A DNA stretch of 64,000 bases from a virus (taxonomy: Duplodnaviria; Heunggongvirae; Uroviricota; Caudoviricetes): positions 130,831 to 194,830 of the IMG/VR virus record IMGVR_UViG_3300042890_002891; one strand, given 5' to 3'. The notes beneath the pieces were generated by a model. That model saw only the letters and a program-made list of their open reading frames with translations. It was not told where the DNA came from and made no database searches. This document shows, in pieces, positions 7,264 to 25,758 of the stretch; the first letter of the stretch is position 1, and each line of letters starts with the position of its first letter. The translations under genes were made by a program, and so were the position numbers.

Positions 7264-8886
7264 CTACCTGGATTCGTCCAGATAATCTGCAGAATCGTCA
7301 GCCTGTTGTTTCAGCGACTGAATCTTTGTTTTCAAGCTGGCAATCTCTGCGGCCATGCGTCGAATCTTTTGATCCATCTCATGATCATCCACATTGCTGT
7401 GCATGAGACTGCGTTGCACCCACTTGTCAAACGCTGATTCAGGGTCTGCTGCCAGGTTGGGATAGTGGCGTTTGGCATAGTTCTTGATGGCATTTAGTTC
7501 AGAGTCATTGGTTTGATTGCTGGCTTCGTTGACACCTTGTGCAATTGCTTCTCTGGCCTGGCGTTCATTTTCTGCTTTGAATTTTTGTATAGCTTGACTG
7601 TCAGTGAGTTGTCCACGATCCAATGCTTGCCAAATTGATAAATCAAATGTAAGAAGTTTTTTTTGTACGGCTTGTGCAAAACTAAGTTCATTGGTGCCGC
7701 GGCCCTGCCAATCAGGCTTCTGGCCCCATACAACTGATATAGACCTATCGTCGGGCAGTGTAATCCTCATACGCTCGCCGTAAAATACATATTTACTACC
7801 TTGCCAGGTAAAAGCAAGATCGCCATTCACTGTTCGTCCCATGCTCCAGCCATGCTTTTTAATCAAAGCATCAACTGCGGCTTGATCTGCATTTTCAGCC
7901 ACATGTGTGTTAGAGACTTCCGCCACACCTTGCTCTTTTATATTAAATATTTTCTTTGCTTTATCATTGAGATTGCTGGGTCTAATAAGTTTAGCAGGTA
8001 TTGTTTTTGCTTGGGACTGTATTGCCTTATGTAGTCTATGGTTGCCATCGAGTATCCAGGCTATTTGATCTTGCTCATCTACCATTATTAAAATAGGAAA
8101 TTGTTTAGACACTGTTACTTGATTAACTCTTTCCATTTCTTCTGGGTTACCGTCCCAATGAAGTAGTTTACTCTTTAGATTATCGTTTATCGGTAAATTT
8201 ATTTGTTTAATGTGTTTGGTTAATTCTAAAATATCCTGTAGTGTAATTTTATCTGTGCCTTTGGACCAACTTGAGTCGGCACCGCCTTCCGCCATATCTT
8301 GTGCTTCTGCACCCATGGCAGTGTCCAGCATGTCAACCACATTGGCCGCCAACTTGGGATTGCTTTGTGTCTCAGGATACAGGCTCATCACCAGGGCTGT
8401 CTTGCGTTTGGGGTTGAGAGTGGGCCATGCCGATCGTATTTCTGTGGCTGATGTCATACCGGGCCCAAACTCCACTGTGGGCAGGTAAGCCATGTAGGCA
8501 TGCTGAGTCATTGGAGCCATGTCATCACTGATGGGTTGCAGATATGCAGGCGTGCCATCTTTCTTGGTAGCACCTGCCACAGGAGGCTTGTCAGCGTCTT
8601 TTTCACTGCGAACAAAGATCAACTGTGTGTCTGCAGGATTGTAACTCTTGGTAATCTCATCCGCACGGAATGGGCTTTTGACTTGATAGAACTTTCCAGG
8701 AGGAACACCGGCCAGTTGTGCTAGTTTTTCTTTGAGTTTGAACGGAAATGGTCGAGCAGAAGTGTCGTTGGTGGCCGCTACCTTGACATCAGCGCCAGGA
8801 AAAGCCTGCTCAGCAGATTGATACAGTGCTAGGTGGCCTGCGTGAAAAGGGTGAAATCCACCAGGCATGATGACTAATTGTTTCAT
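7264..8886 (-). CDS. Modular protein: HIGH-motif nucleotidyltransferase + ParB-like module + unknown modules joined by QxxAE-type linkers
   Basis: PGGFHPFHAGH; ILDGNHRL; linkers QDMAEG, QGVAEV, QGVNEA. Confidence 0.7.
   Translation of the reverse strand: MKQLVIMPGGFHPFHAGHLALYQSAEQAFPGADVKVAATNDTSARPFPFKLKEKLAQLAGVPPGKFYQVKSPFRADEITKSYNPADTQLIFVRSEKDADKPPVAGATKKDGTPAYLQPISDDMAPMTQHAYMAYLPTVEFGPGMTSATEIRSAWPTLNPKRKTALVMSLYPETQSNPKLAANVVDMLDTAMGAEAQDMAEGGADSSWSKGTDKITLQDILELTKHIKQINLPINDNLKSKLLHWDGNPEEMERVNQVTVSKQFPILIMVDEQDQIAWILDGNHRLHKAIQSQAKTIPAKLIRPSNLNDKAKKIFNIKEQGVAEVSNTHVAENADQAAVDALIKKHGWSMGRTVNGDLAFTWQGSKYVFYGERMRITLPDDRSISVVWGQKPDWQGRGTNELSFAQAVQKKLLTFDLSIWQALDRGQLTDSQAIQKFKAENERQAREAIAQGVNEASNQTNDSELNAIKNYAKRHYPNLAADPESAFDKWVQRSLMHSNVDDHEMDQKIRRMAAEIASLKTKIQSLKQQADDSADYLDESR
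7523..8301 (-). repeat. Three copies of the ~17-nt linker repeat (consensus CAAGGTGTGGCGGAAGG)
   Basis: Copies at 7523-7539, 7917-7932, 8285-8301, all in frame. Confidence 0.8.
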
Positions 8887-8901
8887 ACCCAGTATTTAGC
8901 T

Positions 8902-9336
8902 CTACATGTTTTCTAGCATCCAGATATAGATCGGGGTAGTAAACTTCAGAGTCACAGTGCCGTTGCAGCCCAGTTCGCCATAGAACTTGTGAACCGATAG
9001 TTCTCCTGAGCCGTTGAAATTGTGTTGATATTCAGCGAGATCTGGCACCAGTTGATTCAGTGCAATGCCATCAAATTCAATGTCGCTCACAGAAATTCTA
9101 GCGTCGCTGATAATCGTGTTGTTGGCATCCACCTGGGTGTGTTCACTCAGTTTGTTTTTTAACACCAAGCGCAATTCGTGCTCACCGTCATTGTCTGAAA
9201 TATCTGCACTGAATTTGTGACTTTCTTGAACATGTGCCTGATCAAACAGTTTCTGATTGTCTATCCAAATTTCCATGCCCAAGGGCACAGCAGCCGTGGT
9301 AGGTGTAATAGTGCAACTAAAACTAACAGTGGTCAT
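8902..9336 (-). CDS. Hypothetical protein
   Basis: Contiguous ORF; start re-assigned to MTTVSF next to the upstream stop. Confidence 0.6.
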   Translation of the reverse strand: MTTVSFSCTITPTTAAVPLGMEIWIDNQKLFDQAHVQESHKFSADISDNDGEHELRLVLKNKLSEHTQVDANNTIISDARISVSDIEFDGIALNQLVPDLAEYQHNFNGSGELSVHKFYGELGCNGTVTLKFTTPIYIWMLENM

Positions 9337-9337
9337 G

Positions 9338-9712
9338 CTAGTAGGTGGCCTGTACAGTTTCAATAATGCCGTCAGTGAAATTTGTTACCACGGCCCGTAG
9401 CCATGTGAAATTTCCCGTGACTGTTTGATAGTAGGTATCAGTTATTGTGGTAGAGTCAGCAGTGGATCCATCGCCGTATGCAGCAACATCAAACCAGCGT
9501 GAATCTGCAGGATCAGGATCCAGCGTGGCCTGCACAGTTACTTCGCCTTGAACGCCGCGAAATACCCAACGCAGAGTTTGTACGCCGCCACGTCCGCGAT
9601 AGTAATTGGCTGCTTTTTGTGGCGTGCCAATAAAATCTTCAGAGCTGCCATCGTAGTTGCCTGATGGCACACCGTATTCGGTATAAGACAGCAGGGCAAC
9701 AGTAGTAGTCAT
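9338..9712 (-). CDS. Hypothetical beta-rich protein, possibly virion-associated
   Basis: ORF coupled to the upstream stop; GNFTWLRA ending. Confidence 0.6.
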   Translation of the reverse strand: MTTTVALLSYTEYGVPSGNYDGSSEDFIGTPQKAANYYRGRGGVQTLRWVFRGVQGEVTVQATLDPDPADSRWFDVAAYGDGSTADSTTITDTYYQTVTGNFTWLRAVVTNFTDGIIETVQATY

Positions 9713-9879
9713 TATGCAGGTACAATTTCTACAATGGTACCGTCACCAGCTAGAGCTTCTACCACTGAAGCAATTTCAGCGAGATTTTCCGGGGTCAGGG
9801 GTAGTGCAGAGGATTGGTCCGTGTTGGGCACCAATTTGCTCACAGTAATCACAAGGGTTTGTTCAATAAGTTTTGCCAT
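9712..9879 (-). CDS. Small hypothetical protein (55 aa, MAKLIEQTLVITVSKL...)
   Basis: Hand-translated; TAAATA at 9887-9892; stop overlaps next ATG. Confidence 0.6.
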   Translation of the reverse strand: MAKLIEQTLVITVSKLVPNTDQSSALPLTPENLAEIASVVEALAGDGTIVEIVPA

Positions 9880-9885
9880 AGTCTT

Positions 9886-10560
9886 TTATTTAGCCTGTAT
9901 AGGTAGGGTTTTGTTGATAATTCCCGGACACACCAGACTCAACATCAACAAGAGATCTGGGTCGTCGTGATCTACAAAATGATGGTCGCGTGTGGCCAAT
10001 CTGCCGGGACGTTCAAGTTTTTCGCAAAATGCTCTGGGAATTCTAAACAAATCTTGTCGCCCCAGCAGGAACTTTTTGACTCGAGCACTGGTGTCCGGAT
10101 CCCACCATCGACTCTTCAAAAACGTGCGGTACTGATTCACAGGGTTCACCAGCATCACAGTGTCTTTGGGGTACACTACCACCGCTTGACCAATCAACCA
10201 CCGATCAATATATTCAACTTGACTCATGTACTCTAGGGTGGTCAGTTCGTTGGTGTACAAAAACACATGATCATACTGAATCATTATTTTGCATGACTTG
10301 GGCAAGCCTCGCAGCAGATCGCACATGTTGTGCAAATCACCACGCTGCTGAGTATCTGCCAGAGACGGAGCATTTGTGCCAATCCCAATGACATCACCAC
10401 GGTAGCGACCATAGTAATTTTCCAAGCGGCGGTCAAGATCCGCATGATCAAAACTGCGCATGCACCAGGCAAACCTCAGGTAAAACTGCATGCGATACTG
10501 ATACTGATCAAAAAACAGTCGATCGCGTGGTTCCTGACGGATATCTTTAATCTTGCTCAC
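9886..10560 (-). CDS. Hypothetical protein
   Basis: Long ORF; probable GTG start at 10560 overlapping the end of clpA. Confidence 0.6.
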   Translation of the reverse strand: MSKIKDIRQEPRDRLFFDQYQYRMQFYLRFAWCMRSFDHADLDRRLENYYGRYRGDVIGIGTNAPSLADTQQRGDLHNMCDLLRGLPKSCKIMIQYDHVFLYTNELTTLEYMSQVEYIDRWLIGQAVVVYPKDTVMLVNPVNQYRTFLKSRWWDPDTSARVKKFLLGRQDLFRIPRAFCEKLERPGRLATRDHHFVDHDDPDLLLMLSLVCPGIINKTLPIQAK

Positions 10561-12844
10561 TGACTGGATCCAGTAATCTAACAATGTTGTCTGCTGTCAC
10601 CACAGGAATCACATCAAACTGCACCACATCATCTGTTACACCTACTGTGATGTCGCAGTCACTGAGACGATCAAACAAGATTCTCTTGCTCAAGGGCACA
10701 CGAATCAGTTCATCAATCTTGCGACTCAGAGGCCTTGCACCCATTTTGCTGTCGTAACCCTTGATGGCCAGTAGTTCAATCACAGGCTCTGAGAAAAACA
10801 ACCGAATGTTCTTGGATGCCACTGATGTCTTGAGTTCGTCCAGGAACTTGACCACAATCTTCTTGATGGCCAAGGTATCCAGTTTGACAAACTTGCAGAT
10901 CTTGTCAATACGATTACGCAGTTCAGGTTTGAAGAACTCTTTCAATGCACGATCTTCTTCACCAGATTTTTCCAACTCACTGGAGAATCCAATGTTGTTG
11001 TTTTCATTGTCTCTGGCACCCAAGTTTGAGGTCATGATAATGATGGTATTTTTGCAATCTACCCGTTTGCCATTGGCACCTGTGAGATGCCCTTCGTCCA
11101 GCATCTGCAACAAGATATTGGTAACGTCAGCATGTGCCTTTTCAATTTCGTCAAACAGGATCACAGCAAATGGATGTTTGCTCAGATCCGAGATCAGTTT
11201 GCCACCACCCACATTGCCATCTTCAAAGCCCACATAGCCCGGAGGTGCACCAATCAAGCTGCTGACTGAATGCTTTTCCTGAAACTCACTCATGTCGTAT
11301 CTCAACAGATGCATGTCTAGATTTTCACTCAACAGCTTGGCCAATTCAGTTTTGCCTGTGCCAGTTGGGCCCAGAAACAAAAAGCTGGCCATGGGCTTGT
11401 GTGTGCTGCCAATGCCCGAGAAGTTGATGTACACTCGCTCCAGCACAGCATCCACAGCACCTTCTTGACCATAGAGTTTTTGTTTGATGTTGCTTTCAAG
11501 TTCCACAATCTTGGTTGAACGCTCGTTTTGCAATCTATCAGTGGGCACACCGGTGACCCGGGCCACCTGCTGTTCAATCATGCTCTTGTTCACTGTGACC
11601 ATGCCTGCATCCTTCACACGCTCTCTAGCACAGGCAGCATCCAACAGGTCAATTGATTTGTCTGGATTCTTTTTGTCATGAATGTATCGGCCCGCCAGTT
11701 CAACTGCTGCGGTCATGGCCTCTGTGTCGATCATCACATTGTGGAATGCTTCCAGTCTGGGGCTGAGTCCGATCAGAATCTTTTCTGTAGTTTCGGTGTC
11801 TGGTTCATCTATGGTGAGCCTGTAGAATCGTCTCATGAGTGCGCGATCCTTTTCAAAGCTCTCGTAGTATTCTTCCCAGGTGGTGCTGGCAATAACCTTT
11901 AGATTGCCCTTGGTGATTGCGGGCTTCAGCATGTTGGCAAAGTCCAGGCTACCTGAACTGCCGGCACCTGCACCCTTCATGGTATGCGCTTCGTCTACAA
12001 ACAAGATACATTTCTTCTTGGATTCCAGTGCAGCAATCACAGCCTTGAACTTTTCTTCAAAGTCTCCGCGATACTTTGATCCTGCTACCAGAGCACCGAT
12101 TTCCAGGCTCCAGACTTCGTAGTCCTTCAAGAACGCAGGCACACGTCCGGCCACAATCTCCTGTGCCAGACCTTCAATGATGGCAGTCTTGCCCACACCA
12201 GGATCGCCCACCATGAGCACGTTGGCCTTGAAGCGGCGGGCCAGCACAGCAATCATTTCTTCCAGTTCTGTTGTGCGCCCAATTAGCGGTTCCAAAGTAT
12301 CCGACTTGGCCAGGGCTGACAAACTGGTGCAGTATTCTTCCAGGATCTCAGTGGCCTGCTGATCATTGAGACCAGCCACAGGATCCATCTTGTAGTTCTT
12401 TCTCCAGAAGTCCACAAACTCGGCTTTTTGCACGCCAAACTTCAGCAAGAAGTAGTGTGCATGGCTGTTGGTTTCGCCCATGATGGCCAGATACAGGTCA
12501 ATGGTCACAATTTGTCTGCGTCCACTAAACAACACCTGTGTTATTGCACGATTGAATACTCGTTCCAGGCCGGATGTTTTTCTAGGAGTAAAATCTGGAA
12601 TGTCGCTGATTATGCCTATCAGGCTGTCCAGGTAGCCGCAGAGTTCGTTTTCCAGCATGGCCACATCGCAACCGTACTTGGTCAAGGTGTTTCTAAAAGG
12701 CACATGTCTGATCAGGCTCAGCAACAGATGTTCTGTCATCACGTATTCGTGTTTCCAGGTCTGCGCAATTTTTATAGAGCCATCAATGATGGCTTCAATT
12801 TCGGGGTTGTCTTGCATAGCGTTTTGTCCGTGTGGTGTGCTCAT
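10547..12844 (-). CDS. clpA: ATP-dependent Clp protease ATP-binding subunit (ClpA-like, two AAA+ domains)
   Basis: Clp N domain TEHLLLSL; Walker A GDPGVGKT and GPTGTGKT; LIGAPPGYVG; FDEIEKAH; MGARPL. Confidence 0.93.
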   Translation of the reverse strand: MSTPHGQNAMQDNPEIEAIIDGSIKIAQTWKHEYVMTEHLLLSLIRHVPFRNTLTKYGCDVAMLENELCGYLDSLIGIISDIPDFTPRKTSGLERVFNRAITQVLFSGRRQIVTIDLYLAIMGETNSHAHYFLLKFGVQKAEFVDFWRKNYKMDPVAGLNDQQATEILEEYCTSLSALAKSDTLEPLIGRTTELEEMIAVLARRFKANVLMVGDPGVGKTAIIEGLAQEIVAGRVPAFLKDYEVWSLEIGALVAGSKYRGDFEEKFKAVIAALESKKKCILFVDEAHTMKGAGAGSSGSLDFANMLKPAITKGNLKVIASTTWEEYYESFEKDRALMRRFYRLTIDEPDTETTEKILIGLSPRLEAFHNVMIDTEAMTAAVELAGRYIHDKKNPDKSIDLLDAACARERVKDAGMVTVNKSMIEQQVARVTGVPTDRLQNERSTKIVELESNIKQKLYGQEGAVDAVLERVYINFSGIGSTHKPMASFLFLGPTGTGKTELAKLLSENLDMHLLRYDMSEFQEKHSVSSLIGAPPGYVGFEDGNVGGGKLISDLSKHPFAVILFDEIEKAHADVTNILLQMLDEGHLTGANGKRVDCKNTIIIMTSNLGARDNENNNIGFSSELEKSGEEDRALKEFFKPELRNRIDKICKFVKLDTLAIKKIVVKFLDELKTSVASKNIRLFFSEPVIELLAIKGYDSKMGARPLSRKIDELIRVPLSKRILFDRLSDCDITVGVTDDVVQFDVIPVVTADNIVRLLDPVSEQD

Positions 12845-12849
12845 AGTTT

Positions 12850-12878
12850 AGTATACAATAAATTAAGGATTAGATCAA
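12850..12878 (-). promoter_or_regulatory. Sigma70-like promoter for clpA
   Basis: TTGATC-17 nt-TATACT on minus strand. Confidence 0.55.
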
Positions 12879-12890
12879 CCTATTAGGTAC

Positions 12891-13673
12891 TTATTCGGCA
12901 GATTCTTGTTGAATAGCAGCCATTAATTCTGGGGAAATTTTACCTGGGATTCTAGCAGCCACACGAATCAGCATGTCTCCGGGTTGTCCTGAACGATCCG
13001 GTAATCCACGCCCTTTTGCTCGCAGCATGCTGCCAGGTTGTGTGCCCGGAGGCACAGTGATTTCAATCTTGTTGCCCCGTATGTCCAGCATGGTAATGGT
13101 GCCACCCGCAATCAGTTTCCAGACCACTGTGGTGGCTTCGGTCACCACACTACTGCCATTTCGTTGCCAGGCTCGATCCGGATGCACACGAAAGGTCACC
13201 ACTAGATCCAGGCCATCAGGACCAATGCCACTGAACTGCACATTGTCGCCATCTTCGATGCCTGTGGGTATGTTGATCTCAACATTGTGTGTGCCAGTTG
13301 GTGTGCCAATGCTGACCACTCTGGGTCCAGGTGTGGCCACGTCCTGGATGCGTATCCACAGTGTCATCCTGGAGTGAGAACTGCGTTGTGGCTGCTGGAA
13401 CTTGGCTCCAAACATGTTGAATATTTCATTGAAATCAAACTGCCCACCGGGGCCCTGTCCAGGATGCCCGCCAAACTGTGGTCGTGGGTGGTCGTAGTCT
13501 GCTCGCTTTTGTGCATCTCCCAGCACAGCATATGCTGACTGGATCTCTTGAAATTTCTTTGTGTCACCGCCCTTGTCCGGGTGATGGGTACTGGCCAATT
13601 TTCTAAAAGCCTGTTTGATTTGGTCTGCGGTGGCTGTTCGGGCTACACCTAGCGCGGCATAATGATCGGTCAT
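12891..13673 (-). CDS. dnaJ: DnaJ-class co-chaperone (J domain + C-terminal domain, no Zn finger; CbpA-like)
   Basis: YAALGV...HHPDKGG J-domain HPD motif; GRGLP...GDMLI C-domain. Confidence 0.9.
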
Positions 13674-13674
13674 G

Positions 13675-13705
13675 AAAAAGTCCTGTACAGTAATTATACA
13701 GGACT
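13675..13705 (-). terminator. Hairpin plus U-tract overlapping a -10 box
   Basis: Minus strand AGTCCTGTA-TAATTACTG-TACAGGACT-TTTT. Confidence 0.55.
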
Positions 13706-13721
13706 AGGTGCATGAAGTCGA

Positions 13722-13928
13722 TTACTTCTTGCCCGGAACCACAGTGCCTTCCAGCTTCTTGTGCTGTTTGACCTGTTTGCAGTTTTGTTTGATTTTGCCT
13801 GTTTTGGGATCGGTAACTGCTTTGCCGGCTTTGTCTTTGACGTCAACACAGACCTTTCGGGTCTCTGTGTCTGCGGCTGTGGCTGTGAGTGCGAATAATG
13901 CTGTGGCTAAAACGATTGCGTATTTCAT
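13722..13928 (-). CDS. Small exported protein (signal peptide, two Cys)
   Basis: MKYAIVLATALFALTATA/A signal peptide. Confidence 0.7.
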   Translation of the reverse strand: MKYAIVLATALFALTATAADTETRKVCVDVKDKAGKAVTDPKTGKIKQNCKQVKQHKKLEGTVVPGKK

Positions 13929-13931
13929 ATG

Positions 13932-14075
13932 TTATCTCCAAAAGAACAAAATTGTTTTCAGTCGATCAATCGACTTTTGCAAATACTTGGTTTGAATCGT
14001 TTTGGCAAACTCGGGCTGTGGAAAGTTCCAGCCGACGAATGCTCCTAGTGCTATCCAAAATAATGTTTCTAACAT
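13932..14075 (-). CDS. Small membrane protein (47 aa, MLETLFWIALGAFVGWNFPQP...)
   Basis: Hand-translated; AAGGAG RBS upstream. Confidence 0.65.
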   Translation of the reverse strand: MLETLFWIALGAFVGWNFPQPEFAKTIQTKYLQKSIDRLKTILFFWR

Positions 14076-14084
14076 GATATCTCC

Positions 14085-14588
14085 TTATCTTTCTGGGAAT
14101 GGTGGAATCACAGGAGCAGCCTTGCCGCCGAATCCTGACACAACTTGTGATGGATCTACTGCTGGTGCAGAGTTCCAACTGGGTGCAGGTGTGTATGTTG
14201 TTGCTGGTGCACTGCCAAACATGCCACTGCCAAAGCTGGGTGTGGCTGGTGTATTAGGCACTGGGAATCCACCGGGTGTGGAAGCTCCTGCTCCGCCATT
14301 GTTGGCTCCTGCTATTTTTTCTTGGGTACGCCCCATTGCTGCAATACCCAACACTGCACCCATGGCAATGTGGAACAGGCCTGCACCTTGTAGCGTGAGT
14401 GGTTGCCATTGTGCCATGGTACCCACTTTCATCACTGCCTGCAACAGGCTCCAGAGCACAGGAAACAGCATGAAGTCACAGGCACATACTGCCATGTACA
14501 TCCAGCCCATCATGGGGCGCCATTTGGAATTCATCCAGTCTTCTTTTTTCTTTTCTGATTCACTTGGTTGTTTTTGTTCTTCTGCCAT
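14085..14588 (-). CDS. Holin of 3TMs-like membrane protein
   Basis: KWRPMMGWMYMAVCACDF pattern and hydrophobic segments. Confidence 0.65.
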   Translation of the reverse strand: MAEEQKQPSESEKKKEDWMNSKWRPMMGWMYMAVCACDFMLFPVLWSLLQAVMKVGTMAQWQPLTLQGAGLFHIAMGAVLGIAAMGRTQEKIAGANNGGAGASTPGGFPVPNTPATPSFGSGMFGSAPATTYTPAPSWNSAPAVDPSQVVSGFGGKAAPVIPPFPER

Positions 14589-14625
14589 GAGTTTCCTTTG
14601 AATATGTTGTGAGATATTTATGCTG

Positions 14626-15108
14626 TTATCGTGTGACTATGGTCCAGGTTATTGCTATAACAGGCACAATTACTGACACGGCTCCAATTGCCAGCAGTGT
14701 GTTCATTATAGTATTGTACATGGCTTCACGGTCACGCTGTTGTTGGTCTATAACGGCCTGTTCCGCAGCACGCCGTTCTTTGGCCATTCGGGTGCGTTCT
14801 GCCATCATTTCATTCCAGACGTCAGCGTTGCCCGACCAAAACAGTATGTCTTTGAGTTCTTTTTCGTTGTCCCTGAGAGCCTTGCTAGCCATGGCAATTT
14901 CAAGTGCATCCGAACTGATTTGGGCGTCAGTTTTGTTGACAGCAGCAATACGCATCCGAGTGCTGGCCACGTGCACCTGATCTGCTGCATGATAAAACTG
15001 GCTGAATTCTTTGTACAGGCCCGAAACATCTTTGCCCAGTTGTACCGCTGCTTTGATGCCCTTGACTGCACCTTGAGCCATGGCAAATGCTGTGAATGGG
15101 TCTATCAT
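14626..15108 (-). CDS. Hypothetical coiled-coil protein with C-terminal TM helix
   Basis: MIDPFTAFAMAQGAVKGIK...; hydrophobic C-terminus. Confidence 0.65.
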   Translation of the reverse strand: MIDPFTAFAMAQGAVKGIKAAVQLGKDVSGLYKEFSQFYHAADQVHVASTRMRIAAVNKTDAQISSDALEIAMASKALRDNEKELKDILFWSGNADVWNEMMAERTRMAKERRAAEQAVIDQQQRDREAMYNTIMNTLLAIGAVSVIVPVIAITWTIVTR

Positions 15109-15359
15109 TTTTCAGCTCGTCGTTCAGCTGCTCTAGCAGCGTCCCAGGCTGCACGGTCTACAGGCCAATATGGCACCATGACCCAGCGACAAATCTGTCC
15201 ATTTTCCAGGAATTCATTTGTGCCATAGGTTTTTCTACCTACATCACACACTTTGTCTAGGCGTTGCCAGTGACGATAATTTTGAGGCGGCAACACATAC
15301 TGGTCAGCGGATGCTGATAGTACTGTTGTTAGAATAATTATTGACCATCGTGCATGCAC
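15105..15359 (-). CDS. Small exported hypothetical protein
   Basis: Signal-peptide-like N-terminus; ATGA overlap with next gene. Confidence 0.5.
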   Translation of the reverse strand: MHARWSIIILTTVLSASADQYVLPPQNYRHWQRLDKVCDVGRKTYGTNEFLENGQICRWVMVPYWPVDRAAWDAARAAERRAEK

Positions 15360-15426
15360 TGTTATACTCCGGGCAAAAGTTGCCCAGTGTATTTACAGAT
15401 TCTTTGCGTTAGAGCAAATTGGGTGG

Positions 15427-15975: not shown

Positions 15976-15990
15976 GTTGTTTCCTTTGAA

Positions 15991-16578: not shown

Positions 16579-16579
16579 T

Positions 16580-18193
16580 TTATTGTTCCTTGTTGTATTG
16601 ACTGTCAACTATTTGTTTCCAACGAGTTTCATTGGCTCCGCTGAGTTGACGCTGTGCGGATCTGTTGTCTACTGTGGCCTTGTAGTATTGTTTTGCTACT
16701 GTGGCGCCCAGAGCATCAGGCACTGTACTGTTTTGATATGCACTAAAGCCCGGCACATATCCTATCAAGCCCACCAGCAGGCCTTGTGTGGCTGTTTGTG
16801 CTTCCATGGTTGCTGCTCGGCCAATATCTTTGGCCAGTTCCTTGGCTTTTTCTGTGGCTGCTGCTCTAGCTGCTGTGGCATTGCCGCCGGCTTTCTTTTC
16901 CACACTGGCCACAGCACCTTCTGTTTTTTTGGCATCAGCCTTTTGTTCTGCTGCTGCACCAGGAGGCGGTGGTGGGGGTGGTGCAGACGCTGAGTTCATT
17001 GTGCTGGCACTGGGCGGTGCATTGATCACTGATACAGGAGAAGTTGCTGATGTTGCAGCCGGTGTGGCCACAACTGAATCCACAGTGGCATCGCCTGTGG
17101 CCGAAACCACATTGGCAGGATCATTGCGTTGAACTTCCGCTGTGGTGGTCAGGGACGAATTAACAGCAGTGGTCACAGCAGGGTCCAGGTTCACAAGATA
17201 CTTGATAGCATAAGCAGTCTTGTATCCTGTACATTTGTTGCTGAACAAGCTGTCCAACAAACACTGTTGGTTCAAGTATGCTTCTGCATAGCCCGGGCAG
17301 TCAGTAGCATACAATGGACTCAATGAACACTGTTGTGTTTTATATGCTGCTGCATATCCTGCACAGTCACTCATGTAAAGTGGACTGATACTACATTGTT
17401 GGTCGTGATAGGCCGCAGCATAGCCAGGACAATCTGTTGCGTAAAATGGGTTGGCATCACACTGCTGTGTTTTGTAGGCAGCAGCATATCCAGGACAAGT
17501 GGTTGCATACAGGGGATTTGCTGCACACTGTTGGTCATAGTAGGCCTGTTGATACCCGGGACAAGCCGAATTATACAAAGGATTAGAACTGCATTGCTGT
17601 GAAAAATATGCTTGAGCATAACCAGGACAAGCACTGTCCGACAAGGGGTTAGAATTGCATTGTTGAGCAAACACAGCCGCCGCATAACCTGAGCAAGTGG
17701 TAGAACTCAATGGATCGGCAGCACACGGATCAACAGTGTATACTGCGTTGCTATACATATTATAAATGCTGGCATTGCCACTTACTGATGGCGTCATTTT
17801 AAATGTGCCCAGGGTTGTTATATCTCGTGTGTTGTTAAATCTATATTGGTAACTTTGATTACTAGATTGCCATACGCCCTGATGAGACCAGGTTTGATTA
17901 AGGATACTGATGTTTTCACTGTCCCTGATGTTTACGTTGACACTGGCATAGTTTGCCATCCACCAGGAGCAACTACCGTCCTGATTGGTTGCTGTGCATT
18001 GAGTATCGCCAAATGAATATCTGTATCCATAATTAAAACCGTGTATTTGTACACCCGCCCCCACTGAACTCAGTGCCTGATTAATAGCATAGATTTGAGT
18101 TCCTGTTGTTCCGGACAGCAGATTGCCGCTGACAGTTTGTGCTGTTGTGCAGCCAATCCAGAGCATTAGCAGTAATGCTGCCAGTTGCTTCAT
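16580..18193 (-). CDS. Exported protein with eight 22-aa Cys-pair repeats
   Basis: Signal peptide; QQCxxNPLYxxxCPGYxxAY repeats. Confidence 0.75.
   Translation of the reverse strand: MKQLAALLLMLWIGCTTAQTVSGNLLSGTTGTQIYAINQALSSVGAGVQIHGFNYGYRYSFGDTQCTATNQDGSCSWWMANYASVNVNIRDSENISILNQTWSHQGVWQSSNQSYQYRFNNTRDITTLGTFKMTPSVSGNASIYNMYSNAVYTVDPCAADPLSSTTCSGYAAAVFAQQCNSNPLSDSACPGYAQAYFSQQCSSNPLYNSACPGYQQAYYDQQCAANPLYATTCPGYAAAYKTQQCDANPFYATDCPGYAAAYHDQQCSISPLYMSDCAGYAAAYKTQQCSLSPLYATDCPGYAEAYLNQQCLLDSLFSNKCTGYKTAYAIKYLVNLDPAVTTAVNSSLTTTAEVQRNDPANVVSATGDATVDSVVATPAATSATSPVSVINAPPSASTMNSASAPPPPPPPGAAAEQKADAKKTEGAVASVEKKAGGNATAARAAATEKAKELAKDIGRAATMEAQTATQGLLVGLIGYVPGFSAYQNSTVPDALGATVAKQYYKATVDNRSAQRQLSGANETRWKQIVDSQYNKEQ
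17215..17740 (-). repeat. 66-nt-period coding repeat (8 degenerate copies)
   Basis: Read from protein repeat QQCxxxPLYxxxCPGYxxAYx; ends approximate. Confidence 0.75.
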
Positions 18194-18666
18194 TTTTCAC
18201 GTACACTGGCAGGAATACGACTAGGGTCAGCGTCCCAGACGGCCTTGGCTTCTGCACCAATTTTGCCGTCGACCGGGCAGGGTGTTCCGGCATTCATCAT
18301 GGCGTCAAACACTCTACGGTCCTGACACATGGCAGCAACAGCAGCCACTTTCATGCCCATGTCATACAGAGTCTTGCTTATCTTTAAGCGTTCGCAGTTG
18401 TAGTCCACTTGTGTGTTGCCAAAGCTGAGGCCAAAGATTTGTGTTTGAGCTGCTCCACTAACGCCTGTGACACAGATGTCTGAGTTGATGCTGGTGATGC
18501 TGGGTGCAATAGCACTGGGAGGAGGGCTGACCACAGTGGTCTTGCTGTCGCTGATGCTGCTGGTCTTGCTGTCACTGGTGGATTGAGTCACAATTGGGTC
18601 TGACTGTGCTTGGGCCATCACACAGATGCTGATGCCCAGTGCCGTCACTAGTTGTTTTAGATTCAT
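18190..18666 (-). CDS. Exported Cys-containing hypothetical protein
   Basis: Signal peptide; CVTGVSG...CERLK...MCQD...CPVDG; overlaps the repeat-protein start. Confidence 0.7.
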   Translation of the reverse strand: MNLKQLVTALGISICVMAQAQSDPIVTQSTSDSKTSSISDSKTTVVSPPPSAIAPSITSINSDICVTGVSGAAQTQIFGLSFGNTQVDYNCERLKISKTLYDMGMKVAAVAAMCQDRRVFDAMMNAGTPCPVDGKIGAEAKAVWDADPSRIPASVREK

Positions 18667-18799
18667 TGTTGATCCTTGTTATTATAATAGTCTTGCACAG
18701 TATCATGTGCAAGCTACTATATTTAATCTGGATCAATCAATCATTAACCTGGTAGAAAAGTTACATGCCCATCACATGTTCTGACACGCTGGGCGTTTG

Positions 18800-19300
18800 T
18801 TATTTTCTCACTTCCTTGGTCACATCCGGCCACCATTCTGGATCGGGATTTAGCTTGTTCTTGTACAGTTGTTTGATGCGTGTTTCGTATTCCGCTTTGC
18901 TGCCTTGTATTCGACCAGAAACCACATCCAGCACATAGTTCAGTGTGACTGCGTTGGCACTGAGTGTGGCACATCTGGCACTTACTTCGTTCTTCAGTAG
19001 GTCCAACAAGATGCTTTCGGATGATTCTGCCAGCACTCTCACAAACTTCTTGGGCACATGCAGATCTATAGTGCTGTAGACAAAATCATAGTGTGGTTCT
19101 GGGCAGCAGTGAAGCACATACTCGTCCAGCACTTCAATGCGTTTGAAGCCATCTTTGTCGTACCATACAGCACGATTTTCTGTGAGTTCGTCAGGCTGAC
19201 CCAGTTTCTTGGTCAGGCTTTTGACAAATGCCACAGGTTCGCTATTGCGCCACTGTGCAAGTGAATTTTTGGATTCTGTTAGTATTTCATGTACACGCAT
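18800..19300 (-). CDS. Hypothetical protein with CTS-like N-terminus
   Basis: MRVHEILTE/S; TAAATA at 19307-19312. Confidence 0.7.
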   Translation of the reverse strand: MRVHEILTESKNSLAQWRNSEPVAFVKSLTKKLGQPDELTENRAVWYDKDGFKRIEVLDEYVLHCCPEPHYDFVYSTIDLHVPKKFVRVLAESSESILLDLLKNEVSARCATLSANAVTLNYVLDVVSGRIQGSKAEYETRIKQLYKNKLNPDPEWWPDVTKEVRK

Positions 19301-19305
19301 AGCTG

Positions 19306-19950
19306 TTATTTATTCTCTACCCAAAAGCCCAGTCTATCTCCGCCAATGCTGGGATACCAGATCGAGCCTGGTGGCTGCGGTCCGGGATCGTCTTTCCATA
19401 CCGGATATATCACATCACCTGTGTGATTGGCAAAATCGTCATTCCATCTCAGATGTACTTCTATTATCTTGCCATCCACATATTCCACGTTGACCCAGGG
19501 CATCAGTTGCCACAGATCTTCTAGCACCTGTGGAAATTTGTGCTGATCTGAAATTCGCTCCCAGCGACAGAATCTATCTAGTCTATCGCTGCTGCGAAAT
19601 CCTTCCACCGCTAATTGCTGTATGCCATGATGAAAATCCACACTGGTGTGACGACCATCAAACCATTCGGTCCAGAAATATCCATCTGGTACTGAATCAG
19701 TGTCCGCGGGTGTGAGCCATTGCTTTGTGGCGCCACGACTCATCATGCGTATGTTGGTTATGGGTCGCACAATGTACCAGCCTGGCCTGGGAACCGGAAT
19801 GCCGGCTGGGCCAGCTGAGTATCCGTTTTTACGTGCCAGTATCAATTTGTCATAGATCCAGAGATAATCTACAGGACAAGTTGCCCATACATCTTTGTCA
19901 TCTATATAGACCATTGCACCAGCAGCAGTGGGTGGTTGGCCAATGTTCAT
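19306..19950 (-). CDS. Hypothetical protein, possibly ATP-grasp-like
   Basis: YIVRPITN...WTEWFDGRHTSVDF...IIEVHLR resembles ATP-grasp motifs; start uncertain (19914 possible). Confidence 0.5.
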   Translation of the reverse strand: MNIGQPPTAAGAMVYIDDKDVWATCPVDYLWIYDKLILARKNGYSAGPAGIPVPRPGWYIVRPITNIRMMSRGATKQWLTPADTDSVPDGYFWTEWFDGRHTSVDFHHGIQQLAVEGFRSSDRLDRFCRWERISDQHKFPQVLEDLWQLMPWVNVEYVDGKIIEVHLRWNDDFANHTGDVIYPVWKDDPGPQPPGSIWYPSIGGDRLGFWVENK

Positions 19951-19957
19951 TGCTGTG

Positions 19958-20575
19958 TTATACTCCCATCACGTGCAGAGCATGTTCATAGTGACTGATA
20001 CGATCTTCCAGGCCAATGTAGCCACCATTGATGGCTCGGGTCAGTCCCTTGATATCGCCGGCATCGGCATAGCGATTCAGATTGTTGGTTTCCCAAAACC
20101 AACAGGCGCTTTGTGCAGCACCTTCAAATGTGGCCAGATATTCTGCTGCTTCTTCCACAGGGATATCCATGCTGCCTGCAAAGAATGTGTAGTTGTCTCG
20201 GCCGGTGAGCTGAATAAGTCCACGTCCGCAGTAGCGCCAGCCATCTCCAGACGCTTCGTCACCGTTGCCCATTCTGTTGGCATACACTCGATTGGCAATG
20301 CGCTCAGGCTTGTTGGCATACTGTGCTGCAATGTCTGCTGTGGGGAAATACTTGGCAAAGGTTTTCATTAAACTAGCGGCCTTGTAGTTGAGATTTTCCT
20401 TGATAAAAACAAAGTTACCTGACTCATGGGCGCACTGTGCCACAAATGCTGCCACACGTTGTGGAGTGTTGATTTCGTAGTCATCCAGCAACTGTTCCAG
20501 GGCTGCATACCAGTGGTCAATGTGGGGATTCTTGACCATTTGTTTTAGTTGTTCTTTGGTTAGTATTGTGCTCAT
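19958..20575 (-). CDS. Endolysin, glycoside hydrolase family 19
   Basis: FVAQCAHESG...ENLNY...YCGRGLIQLTG...INGGYIGLEDR. Confidence 0.9.
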   Translation of the reverse strand: MSTILTKEQLKQMVKNPHIDHWYAALEQLLDDYEINTPQRVAAFVAQCAHESGNFVFIKENLNYKAASLMKTFAKYFPTADIAAQYANKPERIANRVYANRMGNGDEASGDGWRYCGRGLIQLTGRDNYTFFAGSMDIPVEEAAEYLATFEGAAQSACWFWETNNLNRYADAGDIKGLTRAINGGYIGLEDRISHYEHALHVMGV

Positions 20576-20769
20576 TTTGTTTTCTTTCTTATCAAGTCAA
20601 ATGCTCGCCACACTGCCCAAGCGGCCAGCACAGCAAATATCACAGTCACAGCAATGTCTGTTGTGGTCCATTCCGCTGGTGGCAGCTCTTGTGCTGTGTA
20701 TTGTTTGAGTTCTACCGCGTTAGCAGCAGGATGCTGAGCATTGTATTGCTCTTGTGCATGATTGTTCAT
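20572..20769 (-). CDS. Small membrane protein
   Basis: One C-terminal TM helix; overlaps both neighbours. Confidence 0.55.
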   Translation of the reverse strand: MNNHAQEQYNAQHPAANAVELKQYTAQELPPAEWTTTDIAVTVIFAVLAAWAVWRAFDLIRKKTK

Positions 20770-21035
20770 TTGCCCACGCCTTCAAAGATGCGGCGTTGTA
20801 TTTCATACCATTCAATCCAGGCATCTGTTTTCACAGCACACTCATAGTAGGTGCTGTAGTTGATGGTGATGGTTCTGCTGACGTCACTGAGTAGGGCATC
20901 GTCTTTTAGTTTCTGCAGGTTGGGACAGGTAACCATGGCCTGCTTTCCCGGTGCTTCGGGGAATGTCATTGACACAGGTACCAAGGTGCTGCATGCTGAT
21001 AATAAGAGTGCTAGTGCTAATACAAAGATTTTCAT
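20766..21035 (-). CDS. Outer-membrane lipoprotein, o-spanin (Rz1)-like
   Basis: Lipobox LSAC after a hydrophobic stretch; Pro/Cys-rich; next to endolysin. Confidence 0.65.
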   Translation of the reverse strand: MKIFVLALALLLSACSTLVPVSMTFPEAPGKQAMVTCPNLQKLKDDALLSDVSRTITINYSTYYECAVKTDAWIEWYEIQRRIFEGVGK

Positions 21036-23341
21036 TTTTTCTTGGCCCTTCCTGATTTCATATTTGCTAACCAATGGGCTAGTTGTCCTTTGCGTCCACC
21101 CTGCTTGGCAGTTTTGCGTAGACTGCTTACACTGGCTTTGGTGTTGATACCGTGACGTTTGGCATCGCCTTTGTCTTGAGGATTGCGACCGTCGGCAAAG
21201 TTTTCATCGACTTCTTTATCCATTCGTTGAGCTTGTTTAAATGCGGTATCATACCTTTTGCTATCTTGTGTTGCTGGATTGCGTATAGCATCATCACCGC
21301 CAATACGGCCTTTTTGTATATTAGTAGCCAAGGTGTTGGCCAAGGTGTTAGTTCCAACAAATTTACTGCGTAGTTTTGCCTGTTTCATGCCTTGGATAGC
21401 TTGTTTTGTTTCTGGTCCAGTGTAGGCATTTACTTGGAATACAGGAGTTTGTTTATTGGCTCTAGGAATATCTTGCACTCCGGTTTCGCAACGAACTGCA
21501 AGAGGCTCGCTTGGTATGTCTAGGCGTTTAAAATAAAAACTACTATTAGTCTTGATATCTTGTATCCAAAAAGCTCCACCCTTTGGCACCTTATCTTCTA
21601 AATCAGGAATCATATCTACCATGGTTACAAGATTACTCATCATTCTGGGACCTATGTTTCTAGTCATAGCACGGATTACACTGTGATTATCAAGATATAC
21701 TATCCAGTCACCTACACGATGTTTAATAATTTCGGTATGCTGATGATTCGAGCCTTCCGCCACAGCTTGCTGACCTCCGGTCCATGTTGCCATGAGCAAA
21801 TTGTCTGAATCGTAACCGTATAACTTGCTCAATTTATTTTTAACAGCAGGGGTGAGTTGGCCATTTCCAGGCACAACATCAAATGCCCAATAGGTACGGT
21901 TGTTGTTTTTGGCCACAAACTGTCCACCCAACTGCATCAATTGATCTATAGTGTTGTCAACTTGTCTGGACTTGTCAAGCTGGAAGTCGGCTAGATCCAA
22001 CAGTCCTTTGATCTCAACCCCAGGAATAGAGGCCAGGCTCAGCCAGTTTCTACGACCGCCGGGAGTTTGACTATCGCCAGAAATCAAGGTCTTTTTCATT
22101 ATGGTCAACACAATGCCATACAAGGCTCGGGCCAGGCCGCGTCCGCGATAGTTTTCGTCAACAGTGATAGAACCAACTTGAACACTGTCAGGAATCACAC
22201 CTTTTCCCAAGTACAAACCTGCCACAATAGACGGTTTTGTTGTTCCGGGAATTCCAGGATCAAGAATATGCACATAAGAATCGTATGTGATTGAATACAT
22301 CAAGCCACTGCCGCCCGGCAGGGCACGAAGGTGTTTTTTTCCTGGAGTACTGAAACGGTCTAGTGTATCTTTACCGCCACGAAAATGAGATTGCTTCATG
22401 TTCTCAATTTCTGTCAAGGAGCCTTCTGTCACATCCTGCTGCTGGTAATAGAAACTGTGAACATCGGTTTCTGGATCGTATTTTACCACAAGGTCGTCCA
22501 ACACAAACTCATCACCATATTCTTCCACAGCTTGAGCAAAGCCAGTGGCATCGCCAAAAACATGCTCTATAACGTCATCATCTGTGCAGTTGCCAATATA
22601 GCTTAGATTGTTCTGGCCTTCTGCTAGGCCCCGCTGACCCTCGTGTTCTCCACGCATGGCACGGTCAACATAGTCGTCTGACACTGCTTGTTCTAGGTCC
22701 ACTTTGACACCCAGTTGTTTTGCCAGTGATAATATTTTGTCACGACTCATGGAGTCTTGATATATTGCACTTAGACTTGCTTGGCCTTCACTGTAATCAC
22801 CCCATTCTTGCCATAATGGAACAACTCCGTCAATTTGTTTTAGTCCGCGATACATCTTTTTCTGCAATGCAGGATCAGTGGCATCTGGGAATTGTGGATT
22901 AACACATACAAATTCTATTTCTTTGTATCCAGCCGGTGCTTCTGAAACATCTTGCTTGCCTGCCTGTGTGGCTATCTGCATGGCATTGGCCAAGTCTTGT
23001 TTAGTGAACCGTTTCAATTCACCACGCAGCATCGCCTGCTTGATCTCTTCGGGCCCAAAGTTCACATACTGTGTGTCAACACCACCTGTTGTGTCTGGTC
23101 CCACCAACTGTTGTTCATTGTCGAATCTACCACGGCAGTCATATGCCGTGCCATCTGGCGCCACTGTGTACACATGATCCACACGATACTCAGTGTCATC
23201 AGCAGCATCATCGTCATAGCCTACATGGGCACGTATTTGCCAATCAGGGTGCAACTGCTTCAATGCCATGGCCATCACATGACAGTGTCCTGCCATAAAA
23301 TCGTGACCCTTGACTTCTGAAACAAATTCACTTGCTCTCAT
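21032..23341 (-). CDS. Modular polyprotein A (CTS-like leader; about 6 modules including a GNAT domain)
   Basis: MRASEFVSE; linkers QDVSEA, RGLAEG, QDVTEG, QAVAEG; GNAT motif A VDENYRGRGLARALY. Confidence 0.75.
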   Translation of the reverse strand: MRASEFVSEVKGHDFMAGHCHVMAMALKQLHPDWQIRAHVGYDDDAADDTEYRVDHVYTVAPDGTAYDCRGRFDNEQQLVGPDTTGGVDTQYVNFGPEEIKQAMLRGELKRFTKQDLANAMQIATQAGKQDVSEAPAGYKEIEFVCVNPQFPDATDPALQKKMYRGLKQIDGVVPLWQEWGDYSEGQASLSAIYQDSMSRDKILSLAKQLGVKVDLEQAVSDDYVDRAMRGEHEGQRGLAEGQNNLSYIGNCTDDDVIEHVFGDATGFAQAVEEYGDEFVLDDLVVKYDPETDVHSFYYQQQDVTEGSLTEIENMKQSHFRGGKDTLDRFSTPGKKHLRALPGGSGLMYSITYDSYVHILDPGIPGTTKPSIVAGLYLGKGVIPDSVQVGSITVDENYRGRGLARALYGIVLTIMKKTLISGDSQTPGGRRNWLSLASIPGVEIKGLLDLADFQLDKSRQVDNTIDQLMQLGGQFVAKNNNRTYWAFDVVPGNGQLTPAVKNKLSKLYGYDSDNLLMATWTGGQQAVAEGSNHQHTEIIKHRVGDWIVYLDNHSVIRAMTRNIGPRMMSNLVTMVDMIPDLEDKVPKGGAFWIQDIKTNSSFYFKRLDIPSEPLAVRCETGVQDIPRANKQTPVFQVNAYTGPETKQAIQGMKQAKLRSKFVGTNTLANTLATNIQKGRIGGDDAIRNPATQDSKRYDTAFKQAQRMDKEVDENFADGRNPQDKGDAKRHGINTKASVSSLRKTAKQGGRKGQLAHWLANMKSGRAKKK

Positions 23342-25111
23342 TTAGCAGTTCCATTTACGCAGGGCCAGAGCCTTGCGGGTAGGTTTACCATTGGGCTTTT
23401 TCATTGGGCCTTTTACGCCGCCCATTCTGGCACAGAATGATTTGCGGCGTTTGGCTGCTTTGGAGCCAGGCTTGAGTTTTGACGGCTTGGTTGTGACTGC
23501 TGTTTGCAGTTTTGATCCGGGATTCTCTCTGCGATAACTGGCCACACCCTTGGCGTTGAGCCCGCCCCGGGCGCTCTTGCCTTCTTTTCTGCGCCAGGCT
23601 GCTGTTTCGTACAGTTCGTGATCATCCACTGACTCAAAGTCTTCCCAGATCACATCTGAATCCACACCATGTGATTCGGCCAGTTGTTCTACCATGTCTT
23701 CGATCATGTCAAACTGCTGATCTGTTGTGAGTTCTTCTGTGACAGGCACACAGTTGGGCACCTGGCGGCCACTTTTGTTTTTCATGCCCTGTTGCTGATA
23801 GCCGTCCCAGCATTTTTCATCCAGTTGCTGTTCTGCCATGCCTGGCTTTTGTTTATAAATTGTAACTTGTGTTGAACTGTTGAACTGGCCGCCATTTTGT
23901 TCAATAAAGTCAAGTAGTTGATCATATGCGGCTTGAGCAGTTTGACCACCTTCAAAACGCCGAGATACAATCTCAATACCTATTCCATTTCCTTCTATAG
24001 AATTATCTCTTTCTACCTGATATGCTCTGCCAATTTTGTTTTGGATCATGCTAACAACAGATTGATCTGGACACAACACTTCAATTGCAAATGCTACTGG
24101 ATATTTGCCACCAAGCAGTTGCGTTGCTTTGTAAGGCGAAGTTTTTACCGTGTTGAATTCTTCCGAGCCTTCTGCCACACCTTGCTTTTTATTGTCTTGC
24201 TGTTTATCGCCTTGACGCCACCAATATGCGTTGTATTCTTTGCTGTCGTAGCCAGGTACTTTGGCATCACTACCGTGTTTGGCACGCCACTCACGCTTGA
24301 ATGCGTTGTATTGTGTCATACCTTTGTCTTCCGCTACACCTTGCTGACTATTGATGCTTACATAGGCGACTGGAATAGTTTTCATCTCAGCTAACCAAAA
24401 CGCCACCATTCTATGACGGCCTTCCATAACAAACAAATGTGGATCACCTGCTTCTACATAGATGGGCAATGGCTTTGCTCCACGCTTTAACAACTTCAAA
24501 ATACGATTAGTGCGGTCTTCATCTTCGGGAAATTCATCATATGTCCCATACATTTCACGAATCTGTTTGATGAACTTTTCAATAGATTCTTGCTTGACTT
24601 CAACTGACAATTTATCAGGAGTAGTATTCATCCAATCAGCAACATCGTCTAAATCTTGCTGATTGTGTTTTGAGCCTTCCGCCATGCCTTGCTTCTTGAT
24701 AGGAGTTAGTGTAAAATCTTTATTGACTAAAAATTGCTTTCTTTGTCTGGGACCGATCTTTTGTCCATCGGTATAGTGGAATAATACTTCAACATAAACT
24801 TTGCCGTCGTGCTTATAGTATTGAATGTCAGTATAGGCACCTGCCACTTTTTCAGGATCTAAATATTGGTTTAACGCAGTCCCTATTCGACTTCTGATTT
24901 GTAGTCGAGGAGTGAACTTAGCATCTTCTTCTTCACCTTCCGCCACGCTTTGCTTTTTAGTCTCTGGTGGTTTGGCCACACCGTCTTTGCCTCGGACCAA
25001 CCCAAGTACGGCAGACATATCTCTAGCACCTTTGAGAGCACCCTGGGCTAGTTTCTTTTCTTTTGATCCCATCTTGGGTGCAGAGTCTTTGGAGCCTTCC
25101 GCCATGCTTTC
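21753..25111 (-). repeat. Ten dispersed in-frame copies of the ~17-nt linker repeat (CAAGGTGTGGCGGAAGG-like)
   Basis: 21753-21769, 22422-22438, 22617-22633, 22938-22954, 23830-23845, 24168-24184, 24327-24343, 24675-24691, 24936-24952, 25095-25111. Confidence 0.85.
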
Positions 25112-25318: not shown

Positions 25319-25758
25319 TTTTTCTTTCCTTTTGTGCTGACATTTATTGCTGCTCCTGAACGATTGGCGTCAGGATCTTGTCGTCGTTTTCTGGCCGCTG
25401 CTGATGCACGACCTTTCTTGCCCAGTGCATTGGCCTTGGCTCGTGGCAAACACTTGGGCTTGCCTTCTGATTTGGAACCTCGAGCACAGTCACCGCGTAT
25501 TTTGCCGTCTGGTCCAAAGCGTACCCATTTGTCCTTGAACCAGTCTCGAAGATTTTCATTCACGTCTGAGTCAGCATGTGCCTCACACATGCCACAGTCT
25601 TCGCACACCATTTCCATCACAGTGTCATCAACAGATTCGTTGTGTTTGCGTTTGCCTGCACAATGGGCCTTTTGTGAGAAGCCTTTTGGGTGAGCACAAT
25701 TGATGCTCTTTTTGTATTTTGGGCTCCACTTTTCAGTGACAAATTCTGTGGCTCTCAT
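25315..25758 (-). CDS. Small basic Cys-containing protein with CTS-like N-terminus
   Basis: MRATEFVTE/KWSPKYKKSINC; second module after VNE/NLRDWF. Confidence 0.7.
   Translation of the reverse strand: MRATEFVTEKWSPKYKKSINCAHPKGFSQKAHCAGKRKHNESVDDTVMEMVCEDCGMCEAHADSDVNENLRDWFKDKWVRFGPDGKIRGDCARGSKSEGKPKCLPRAKANALGKKGRASAAARKRRQDPDANRSGAAINVSTKGKKK

Follow-up and report, generated by a model that had tools for sequence, protein, structure and literature searches.

Variable cassettes exchanged by recombination can have short, conserved coding sequence at their edges, as in the 17-bp repeats of Borrelia vls, the minicassettes of Neisseria pilS and the VENN border of CdiA toxins. Among phages, the His boxes of T-even tail fibres are likewise in-frame motifs associated with recombination (Tetart et al. 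1998, as cited in PMC3157838), and the PeSLs of T4-type phages are intergenic units of an early promoter and a stem-loop terminator, located in hyperplastic regions, which move whole genes and form mini-circles (PMC2839356, PMC4122927). The internal proteins of T4 carry a 10-residue capsid-targeting sequence, and gp21 cleaves after Glu at L/I-x-E (PMC9026906, PMC3012670). For polyvalent proteins, early injection is thought likely and processing by built-in zincin-like peptidases has been proposed; the zincin-like MPTase is a common theme in them, not an obligatory one (PMC5512222). Here we analyzed a 64,000-nucleotide stretch of a Caudoviricetes genome (the window; bases 130831-194830 of the 261,673-bp IMG/VR record IMGVR_UViG_3300042890_002891), in which a short repeat, hereafter the joint, recurs within the polyprotein genes P0001, P0002 and P0003. 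The joint is probably a standard in-frame recombination joint of cargo-type polyproteins, and probably also a head-protease site of the T4 type.

The joint and the genes that carry it

The IMG/VR record is linear, with 45% G+C (mean GC 0.455) and an estimated completeness of about 75% (CheckV). It encodes tail and baseplate genes, replication genes, a ClpA-like ATPase and 29 tRNAs, indicating that it represents part of a jumbo-phage genome.

The preliminary description of the window had listed 13 in-frame copies of a linker with GAA for Glu in every copy and GCG in seven of the ten Ala-Glu copies. All 13 were located and translated on the minus strand, in the sense direction and in frame, across three open reading frames (ORFs), and the codon counts were exact, with GAA at 13/13 joints and GCA in the three Ala-Glu copies lacking GCG. 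The genes are as follows.

23342-25318, minus strand: polyprotein gene P0003, 658 aa; seven modules, six joints
21032-23341, minus strand: polyprotein gene P0002, 769 aa; abuts P0003; five modules, four joints
7264-8886, minus strand: P0001, 540 aa; three joints and cassette modules after a cytidylyltransferase-like domain; without leader

The DNA consensus of the joint, of about 18-20 bases, is AG CAA GGT GTG GCG GAA GGC, encoding Q-G-V-A-E-G, and the peptide pattern is [QKE]-[GDSA]-[VML]-[ATSN]-E-[GAVDQ] with the consensus QGVAEG. Seven copies matched the 17-mer with at most three mismatches when 0.2 were expected, and none of 100 shuffles reached seven; the remaining six copies were degenerate (QGVNEA, QDVTEG, RGLAEG, QDVSEA, PGMAEQ and ESMAEG). 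A fourth polyprotein gene, outside the window (genome 125748-129251, 1167 aa), contained five clear joints and one decayed joint. Close copies in the 261-kb genome were confined to these four genes, none being antisense or out of frame, and 4-8 modules per gene were bounded by joints. As all joints share one codon phase, exchange between any two of them preserves the reading frame.

The N-terminal part of P0003 consisted of a leader and a Cys-rich (CPHCGG) module, and its C-terminus was a basic DUF6321 domain (E 4e-21). A ParB/Srx-like module with an EGRHR motif was identified by eye, and the middle modules had a homolog depth of only 0-2 sequences. In P0002, one module was GNAT-like with a score below threshold, and the C-terminal tail was basic. 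Residues 1-195 of P0001 formed a resident cytidylyltransferase-like domain with a weak match (20.3 bits vs a cut-off of 21). Neither P0001-P0003 nor the fourth gene matched a peptidase family. At 23392-23432 (minus strand), inside the DUF6321-coding 3' end of P0003, the GP20-b RNA motif was matched below threshold (25.6 bits vs a gathering score of 36.2, E 0.08), which may be due to chance.

Conservation of the joint as nucleotides

The linker had been proposed to be conserved as DNA, with GCG uncommon, by eye, in other Ala-rich genes. Indeed, GCG made up 7% of the Ala codons genome-wide and 8% of those in the four joint genes outside joints, as compared with 7/10 at the window joints (binomial P 8e-7) and 11/14 when the fourth gene was included (P 6e-11), and the spelling of the joint was constrained beyond codon usage. 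The cleanest set was obtained from loci fetched by P0002 and P0003 peptides without the joint, giving 77 unique G[VM]AE sites. In this set CAA was used at 45/45 Gln codons, GGT at 79% (background 43%), GTG for 92% of Val (background 28%), GCG at 70% (background 7%) and GGC for 76% of the next Gly (background 34%). The codon two upstream was mostly AAG, GAG or CAG, whichever of Lys, Glu or Gln was encoded, and this NAG preference is a nucleotide pattern rather than a residue pattern. The copies that had not been used to find the IMG/VR contigs showed GGT at 93%, GTG for 85% of Val and GCG at 87%, against backgrounds of 43%, 22% and 7%, respectively.

Among 113 near-consensus copies, 31% of the 215 codon departures were synonymous vs 26% expected for random single-base changes, indicating that synonymous sites were about as constrained as replacement sites. 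The variants were mostly one step from the consensus (ATG, GAT, TCG and GAA). The protein-level preferences that remained were an almost invariant Glu, preceded by V/M/L and A/S/T. The N-terminal leader of the joint-bearing genes varied freely at synonymous sites, which shows how a purely peptide-level signal behaves in these genes. These results demonstrated that the joint is conserved as nucleotides, beyond the peptide alone, and ordinary protein selection leaves this constraint unexplained.

Several sources of the uniform spelling were considered and rejected. Local gene conversion was not supported by the identity between copies, which was 17.30/18 bases within a locus vs 17.35 between loci (P 0.69). 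A Chi-like hotspot was discarded as 7- and 8-base words of the joint were not enriched outside joints on either strand. Rare codons or tRNA supply did not account for the spelling, because the fixed codons include common ones and the phage tRNAs can read the joint codons under standard wobble rules. A known RNA family was dismissed as no joint gave an Rfam match.

Exchange of modules at the joint

A close relative, IMGVR_UViG_3300032092_000964 (L156/L160), was 92.6% identical over window 26241-25094 and 95.2% identical over 23838-22740. Between these segments, the 1255 nt at 25093-23839, encoding five modules, were replaced in L160 by 646 nt encoding two other modules, and both edges of the replacement fell within joints, at 25094 and 23828. 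The near-identity of the joints means that the position of a crossover within a joint cannot be fixed. The joints of the window and the partner breakpoints found at them are listed below, together with a mobile module of P0001.

25094-25111, minus strand: joint ESMAEG, degenerate; left breakpoint of the replacement vs L160
24935-24952, minus strand: joint QSVAEG, GCG; the 91% identical L184 module ends here
24674-24691, minus strand: joint QGMAEG, GCG; 17-mer match
24326-24343, minus strand: joint QGVAED, GCG; one end of a 97.8% identical 136-nt match to L224
24167-24184, minus strand: joint QGVAEG, GCA; a partner match ends here
23828-23845, minus strand: joint PGMAEQ, degenerate; right breakpoint of the replacement vs L160
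22937-22954, minus strand: joint QDVSEA, degenerate; a partner match ends here
22616-22633, minus strand: joint RGLAEG, degenerate; a partner match ends here
22421-22438, minus strand: joint QDVTEG, degenerate; the sole window joint without a partner breakpoint found
21752-21769, minus strand: joint QAVAEG, GCG; a partner match ends here
8284-8301, minus strand: joint QDMAEG, GCG; 5' edge of the mobile ParB-like module
7918-8283, minus strand: mobile ParB/Srx-like module, P0001 aa 201-323, GC 0.35
7915-7932, minus strand: joint QGVAEV, GCG; 3' edge of the mobile ParB-like module
7522-7539, minus strand: joint QGVNEA, degenerate; a partner match ends here

The mobile module at 7918-8283, for which ParB-like leads were obtained (phrog_1033, E 4.5e-5; Atlas score 0.91), showed 93-94% DNA identity to L123, L124 and L130 from three metagenomes. 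The identity took in both bordering joints in full and went no further; the flanks were unrelated in L124 and in L123/L130, those of L123 and L130 matching each other. An ortholog of the fourth gene, L184, had joint-bounded blocks replaced, and one of its modules was 91% identical to module 3 of P0003, located 28 kb away in another gene of the present genome. In the syntenic 262-kb relative L097, the nucleotidyltransferase gene was found without any joint, and its homology to P0001 (59% amino-acid identity) stopped at joint 8284, indicating that the cassettes were added to a leaderless resident gene in this lineage.

In an all-against-all comparison of matches at least 90% identical inside the polyprotein ORFs, 63% of 198 distinct match ends, which are not all independent, lay within 15 nt of a joint, as compared with 6.5% for random positions. 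At least one partner match ended at 12 of the 13 window joints. The alignments showed that modules are replaced, inserted, lost and moved at the joint, in comparisons of close relatives as well as of distant phages, and also from one gene to another. The swapping of in-frame cassettes at the repeat, suggested in the preliminary description, was thus borne out by breakpoints falling on the joint at both the strain level and between phages.

L160 also contained an extra ORF with GIY-YIG-like motifs (by eye) upstream of the polyprotein locus (L160:1432-2067, plus strand, vs window about 26241-26364), which was not present in the window and looks like an indel of a free-standing homing endonuclease.

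Base composition and comparison with integrons

Several modules had been described as AT-rich, and their GC of 0.35-0.42 against the genome mean agreed with this description. The spread among 24 modules (standard deviation 0.042 for GC and 0.079 for GC at third codon positions, GC3) was, however, the same as among random segments of equal length taken from other genes (P 0.57 and 0.55, respectively), so that the composition lay within the normal scatter of the genome and did not mark the modules as foreign cassettes. The mean GC3 of the modules was somewhat low (0.385 vs 0.435, P about 0.001).

The locus had also been likened to an integron. The tyrosine recombinase family PF00589 had no match in the 261 kb, while 14/14 control genomes gave a match. 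No obvious dyad symmetry was seen by eye in the 20-base consensus, no attC-like hairpin was found, and the units are in-frame domains; the likeness did not hold.

Leaders and head-protease genes

Eight genes in the record, including six within the window, begin with a leader of the form M-R-A-x-E-F-x-x-E or a close variant. Leaders and leader-bearing genes of the window are listed here.

25315-25758, minus strand: single-module gene with the leader MRATEFVTE, directly upstream of P0003
25292-25318, minus strand: P0003 leader MNINDIITE, ending in hydrophobic-x-Glu; T4 capsid-targeting-like
23315-23341, minus strand: P0002 leader MRASEFVSE; T4 capsid-targeting-like
1791-2228, 18800-19300 and 716-1822 (internal Met): further leader-bearing genes

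In other contigs, too, leader-like starts were more common on joint-bearing ORFs, at 57% vs 23% with a loose pattern and 22% vs 10% with a strict one (P 0.002). The joint peptide, (V/M/L)-(A/S/T)-E|G, was compatible with the gp21 rule L/I-x-E (PMC9026906). Both an S77 protease and a gp23-type capsid gene were present in three of five large joint-bearing contigs, including G001, whose ClpA-like protein was 74% identical to that of the window and whose baseplate hub protein was 55% identical to that of the present genome. In the joint-bearing contigs with capsid genes, the capsid proteins started with L-L-E-G. By analogy with T4, the joint is probably also a cleavage site for a T4-type head protease.

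Occurrence in other genomes

The exact 18-base pattern was found in at least 120 IMG/VR contigs. The contigs listed had a G+C content of mostly 36-50% and usually carried several joints within long ORFs; with any base allowed at the Ala wobble position, the contigs listed were largely the G-bearing ones already found. Among cultured phages the joint was absent, with chance matches only, and the genes had no near match. On balance, the joint seems to separate autonomous modules of 50-300 residues in widespread, uncultured, mostly large phages.

Prokaryote genomes totalling 596 Gb gave 56 matches to the exact 18-mer, mostly single matches from high-GC actinomycetes that seem to be due to chance or to unrelated sequence. 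Many Nonomuraea genomes (L240, L244, L245, L252 and about ten more) had one copy each, presumably within a single conserved gene of high GC that has no relation to the phage joint. Only a few small contigs of lake metagenome-assembled genomes (MAGs) among these matches looked phage-like. The contig L285 (CAILDT010000116.1, 8.9 kb), binned as an uncultured Bacteroidetes lake MAG, carried three exact joints and probably comes from a phage, having been assigned to a bacterial bin.

Other features of the genome

Beside the polyprotein genes, the ClpA-like AAA+ ATPase at 10547-12844 (minus strand) was about 39-41% identical to other jumbo-phage ClpA-like proteins. It is adjoined at 12891-13673 (minus strand) by a DnaJ-type co-chaperone with a J domain and a C-terminal domain, and the two look like a chaperone or unfoldase pair. 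A 1345-aa protein without joints, at 2225-6262 (minus strand), contained an Amidoligase_2 domain (E 7e-7) and a weak match to the metallopeptidase-like DUF6782 (19.4 bits vs a cut-off of 27); its N-terminus, MNINEL..., resembled the start of P0003.

Elsewhere in the record, the 29 tRNA genes were clustered on the minus strand at genome 75279-90582 (L005, L006), covering most amino acids. Five adjacent ORFs of 404-571 aa at genome 41893-52247 (L003:5893-16247) all matched radical-SAM families and were followed by a Nol-like carbamoyltransferase at genome 53372-54853; these genes may be a cluster for modification or biosynthesis. A single ORF of 4669 aa (genome 20008-34017; L002:2008-16017) lies among the tail and baseplate genes.

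Discussion

The conservation of spelling and the clustering of breakpoints suggest that the DNA identity of the joint may itself be the recombination substrate, acting as microhomology. Exchange would be homology-dependent, by crossover or annealing on 18-26 bp of identity during mixed infection, and modules lying between consensus joints would spread best, which would keep the spelling uniform. The joint, like the leader M-R-A-x-E-F-x-x-E, would probably also serve a T4-type head protease cutting after Glu. After packing into the capsid, the polyprotein chain would be cleaved to give single effectors that leave the head together with the DNA; packaging and cleavage are proposed here by analogy with the internal proteins of T4.

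Several observations weigh against this explanation. Identity tracts of 18-26 bp are short for homologous recombination, and the case for selection for exchangeability is indirect. Local homogenisation was not evident, copies within a locus being no more alike than copies of different loci. The two joints at the left L160 junction differed at three of their first six bases, so that the crossover point could not be placed there. Neither an S77 protease, a gp23-type capsid gene nor a T4-type portal was found in the 261 kb of this record of about 75% completeness, and nearly all modules had no match in a Pfam search. As P0001 has no leader and its syntenic ortholog no joint, capsid cleavage of P0001 is doubtful.

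We consider it unlikely that the joint is in essence a signal at the peptide level (a head-protease site or a flexible linker), with in-domain recombinants being purged and DNA identity playing no role. Such a signal would agree with the fit of the motif to hydrophobic-x-Glu and the nearly invariant Glu, with the T4-like leaders and with the S77 protease in related contigs, and viable recombinants are expected at domain boundaries anyway. The synonymous constraint, seen as GCG at 70-87% vs 7%, NAG upstream and synonymous departures at chance level, would nevertheless be left unexplained, while the leader, a real peptide signal of the same genes, varies synonymously. In addition, gp21-type sites require just three residues (PMC9026906), and P0001 has joints but no leader. 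A function of the conserved bases at the level of RNA or translation, such as a ribosome pause or an RNase or regulator site, with recombination as a by-product, would account for a nucleotide constraint that is always on the sense strand and in one frame, and GCG and GTG are uncommon codons. We consider this quite improbable, since the common codons GGT, CAA and GAA were equally fixed, which does not fit pausing at rare codons; nor did the joints show any Rfam match, a regularly spaced start codon downstream (sequences read) or a common structure-forming flanking sequence.

A recognition site of about 20 bases for a dedicated enzyme, an integron-like site-specific recombinase or a nuclease driving cassette movement, would also account for the nucleotide constraint. 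The module that spread most recently is of the ParB/Srx-like type, whose fold is known to include nucleases (PMC5512222), and a GIY-YIG gene adjoins the locus in the close relative. Against these, no tyrosine recombinase was found in the 261 kb, the only GIY-YIG gene of the genome lies 30 kb off, no dyad symmetry was obvious in the joint by eye, and no gene is known that co-occurs with joints; sub-words of the joint were not enriched elsewhere in the genome, and the joint is thus not Chi-like. A dedicated enzyme is accordingly a very remote candidate. Assembly chimeras formed at a short repeat come to mind because the contigs are metagenome assemblies and the window's arrangement occurs in a single assembly, but the identity tracts are of 18-26 bases. 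This length is at or below the smallest k-mer that assemblers commonly use. Moreover, the same arrangements recurred in independent samples (L123 and L130, L191-L195, L206-L213) and reading frames were always preserved, making chimeras extremely improbable as the source of the mosaics.

Beyond a standard recombination joint of cargo-type polyproteins, the joint might tentatively be regarded as a signal dedicated to in-frame recombination, analogous in phages to exon shuffling, whose spelling is kept by selfish cassettes or an unknown nuclease or recombinase. If this were the case, one sequence would be under selection for DNA exchange and for protease cleavage at the same time. If the joint is indeed a standard recombination joint, a large group of uncultured phages would assemble its injected or early-acting arsenal from a shared module pool via one joint. 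This would explain rapid change of the arsenal in the arms race against host defences, and would represent a natural case of domain shuffling guided by an intragenic DNA signal. The joint offers a handle for finding and excising hundreds of unknown effector modules, the boundaries of which are marked in the sequence, and suggests a design rule for engineered phage cargo.

Comparison with known systems

A full-text literature search for the joint peptide returned nothing relevant. The polyproteins resemble the T4 internal proteins IPI-III and Alt in the short leader ending in hydrophobic-x-Glu on diverse small effectors (PMC3012670, PMC9026906), in a cleavage rule 'after Glu', cleavage at the joint being predicted from the motif, and in a diverse, fast-changing cargo of which the targeting signal alone is conserved. 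They differ in that the effectors are strung in one polypeptide with a six-residue internal joint up to six times, that the joint is conserved as DNA, and that the record has no protease gene. As in polyvalent proteins (Iyer et al. 2017, PMC5512222), several unrelated small domains may be combined here in one phage protein, among them putative ParB/Srx-like and nucleotidyltransferase-type domains, for which the family matches were weak. In contrast to polyvalent proteins, P0001-P0003 and the fourth gene gave no match to a peptidase family, and all modules are connected by one DNA-conserved joint, whereas no recurrent linker is described in PMC5512222, in which the word 'linker' is absent.

As in the PeSL cassettes of T4-type phages (PMC2839356, PMC4122927), a repeated short DNA motif edges indels and replacements between close relatives; unlike them, the joint lies within ORFs, is translated, has no stem-loop and moves protein domains in frame. 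The glycine-rich motifs of the gp38 adhesin (PMC3157838) are similar in being in-frame motifs, with recombination at or close to them exchanging variable segments. Those motifs and the His boxes form the structural core of one domain family, whereas the joint, with its constraint on synonymous positions, connects unrelated folds in several genes and across many phages. The locus resembles integron cassettes (attC and IntI) in that its exchangeable units are arrayed with a recurrent site at their boundaries, but no integrase was found in 261 kb, there is no attC-like hairpin, and the units are in-frame domains rather than promoterless genes. The vls, pilS and CdiA systems vary one protein in one organism, while here unrelated modules are pooled across a phage metapopulation. 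A translated, synonymously constrained joint common to unrelated modules of many phages is thus a new twist on motif-guided modular exchange.

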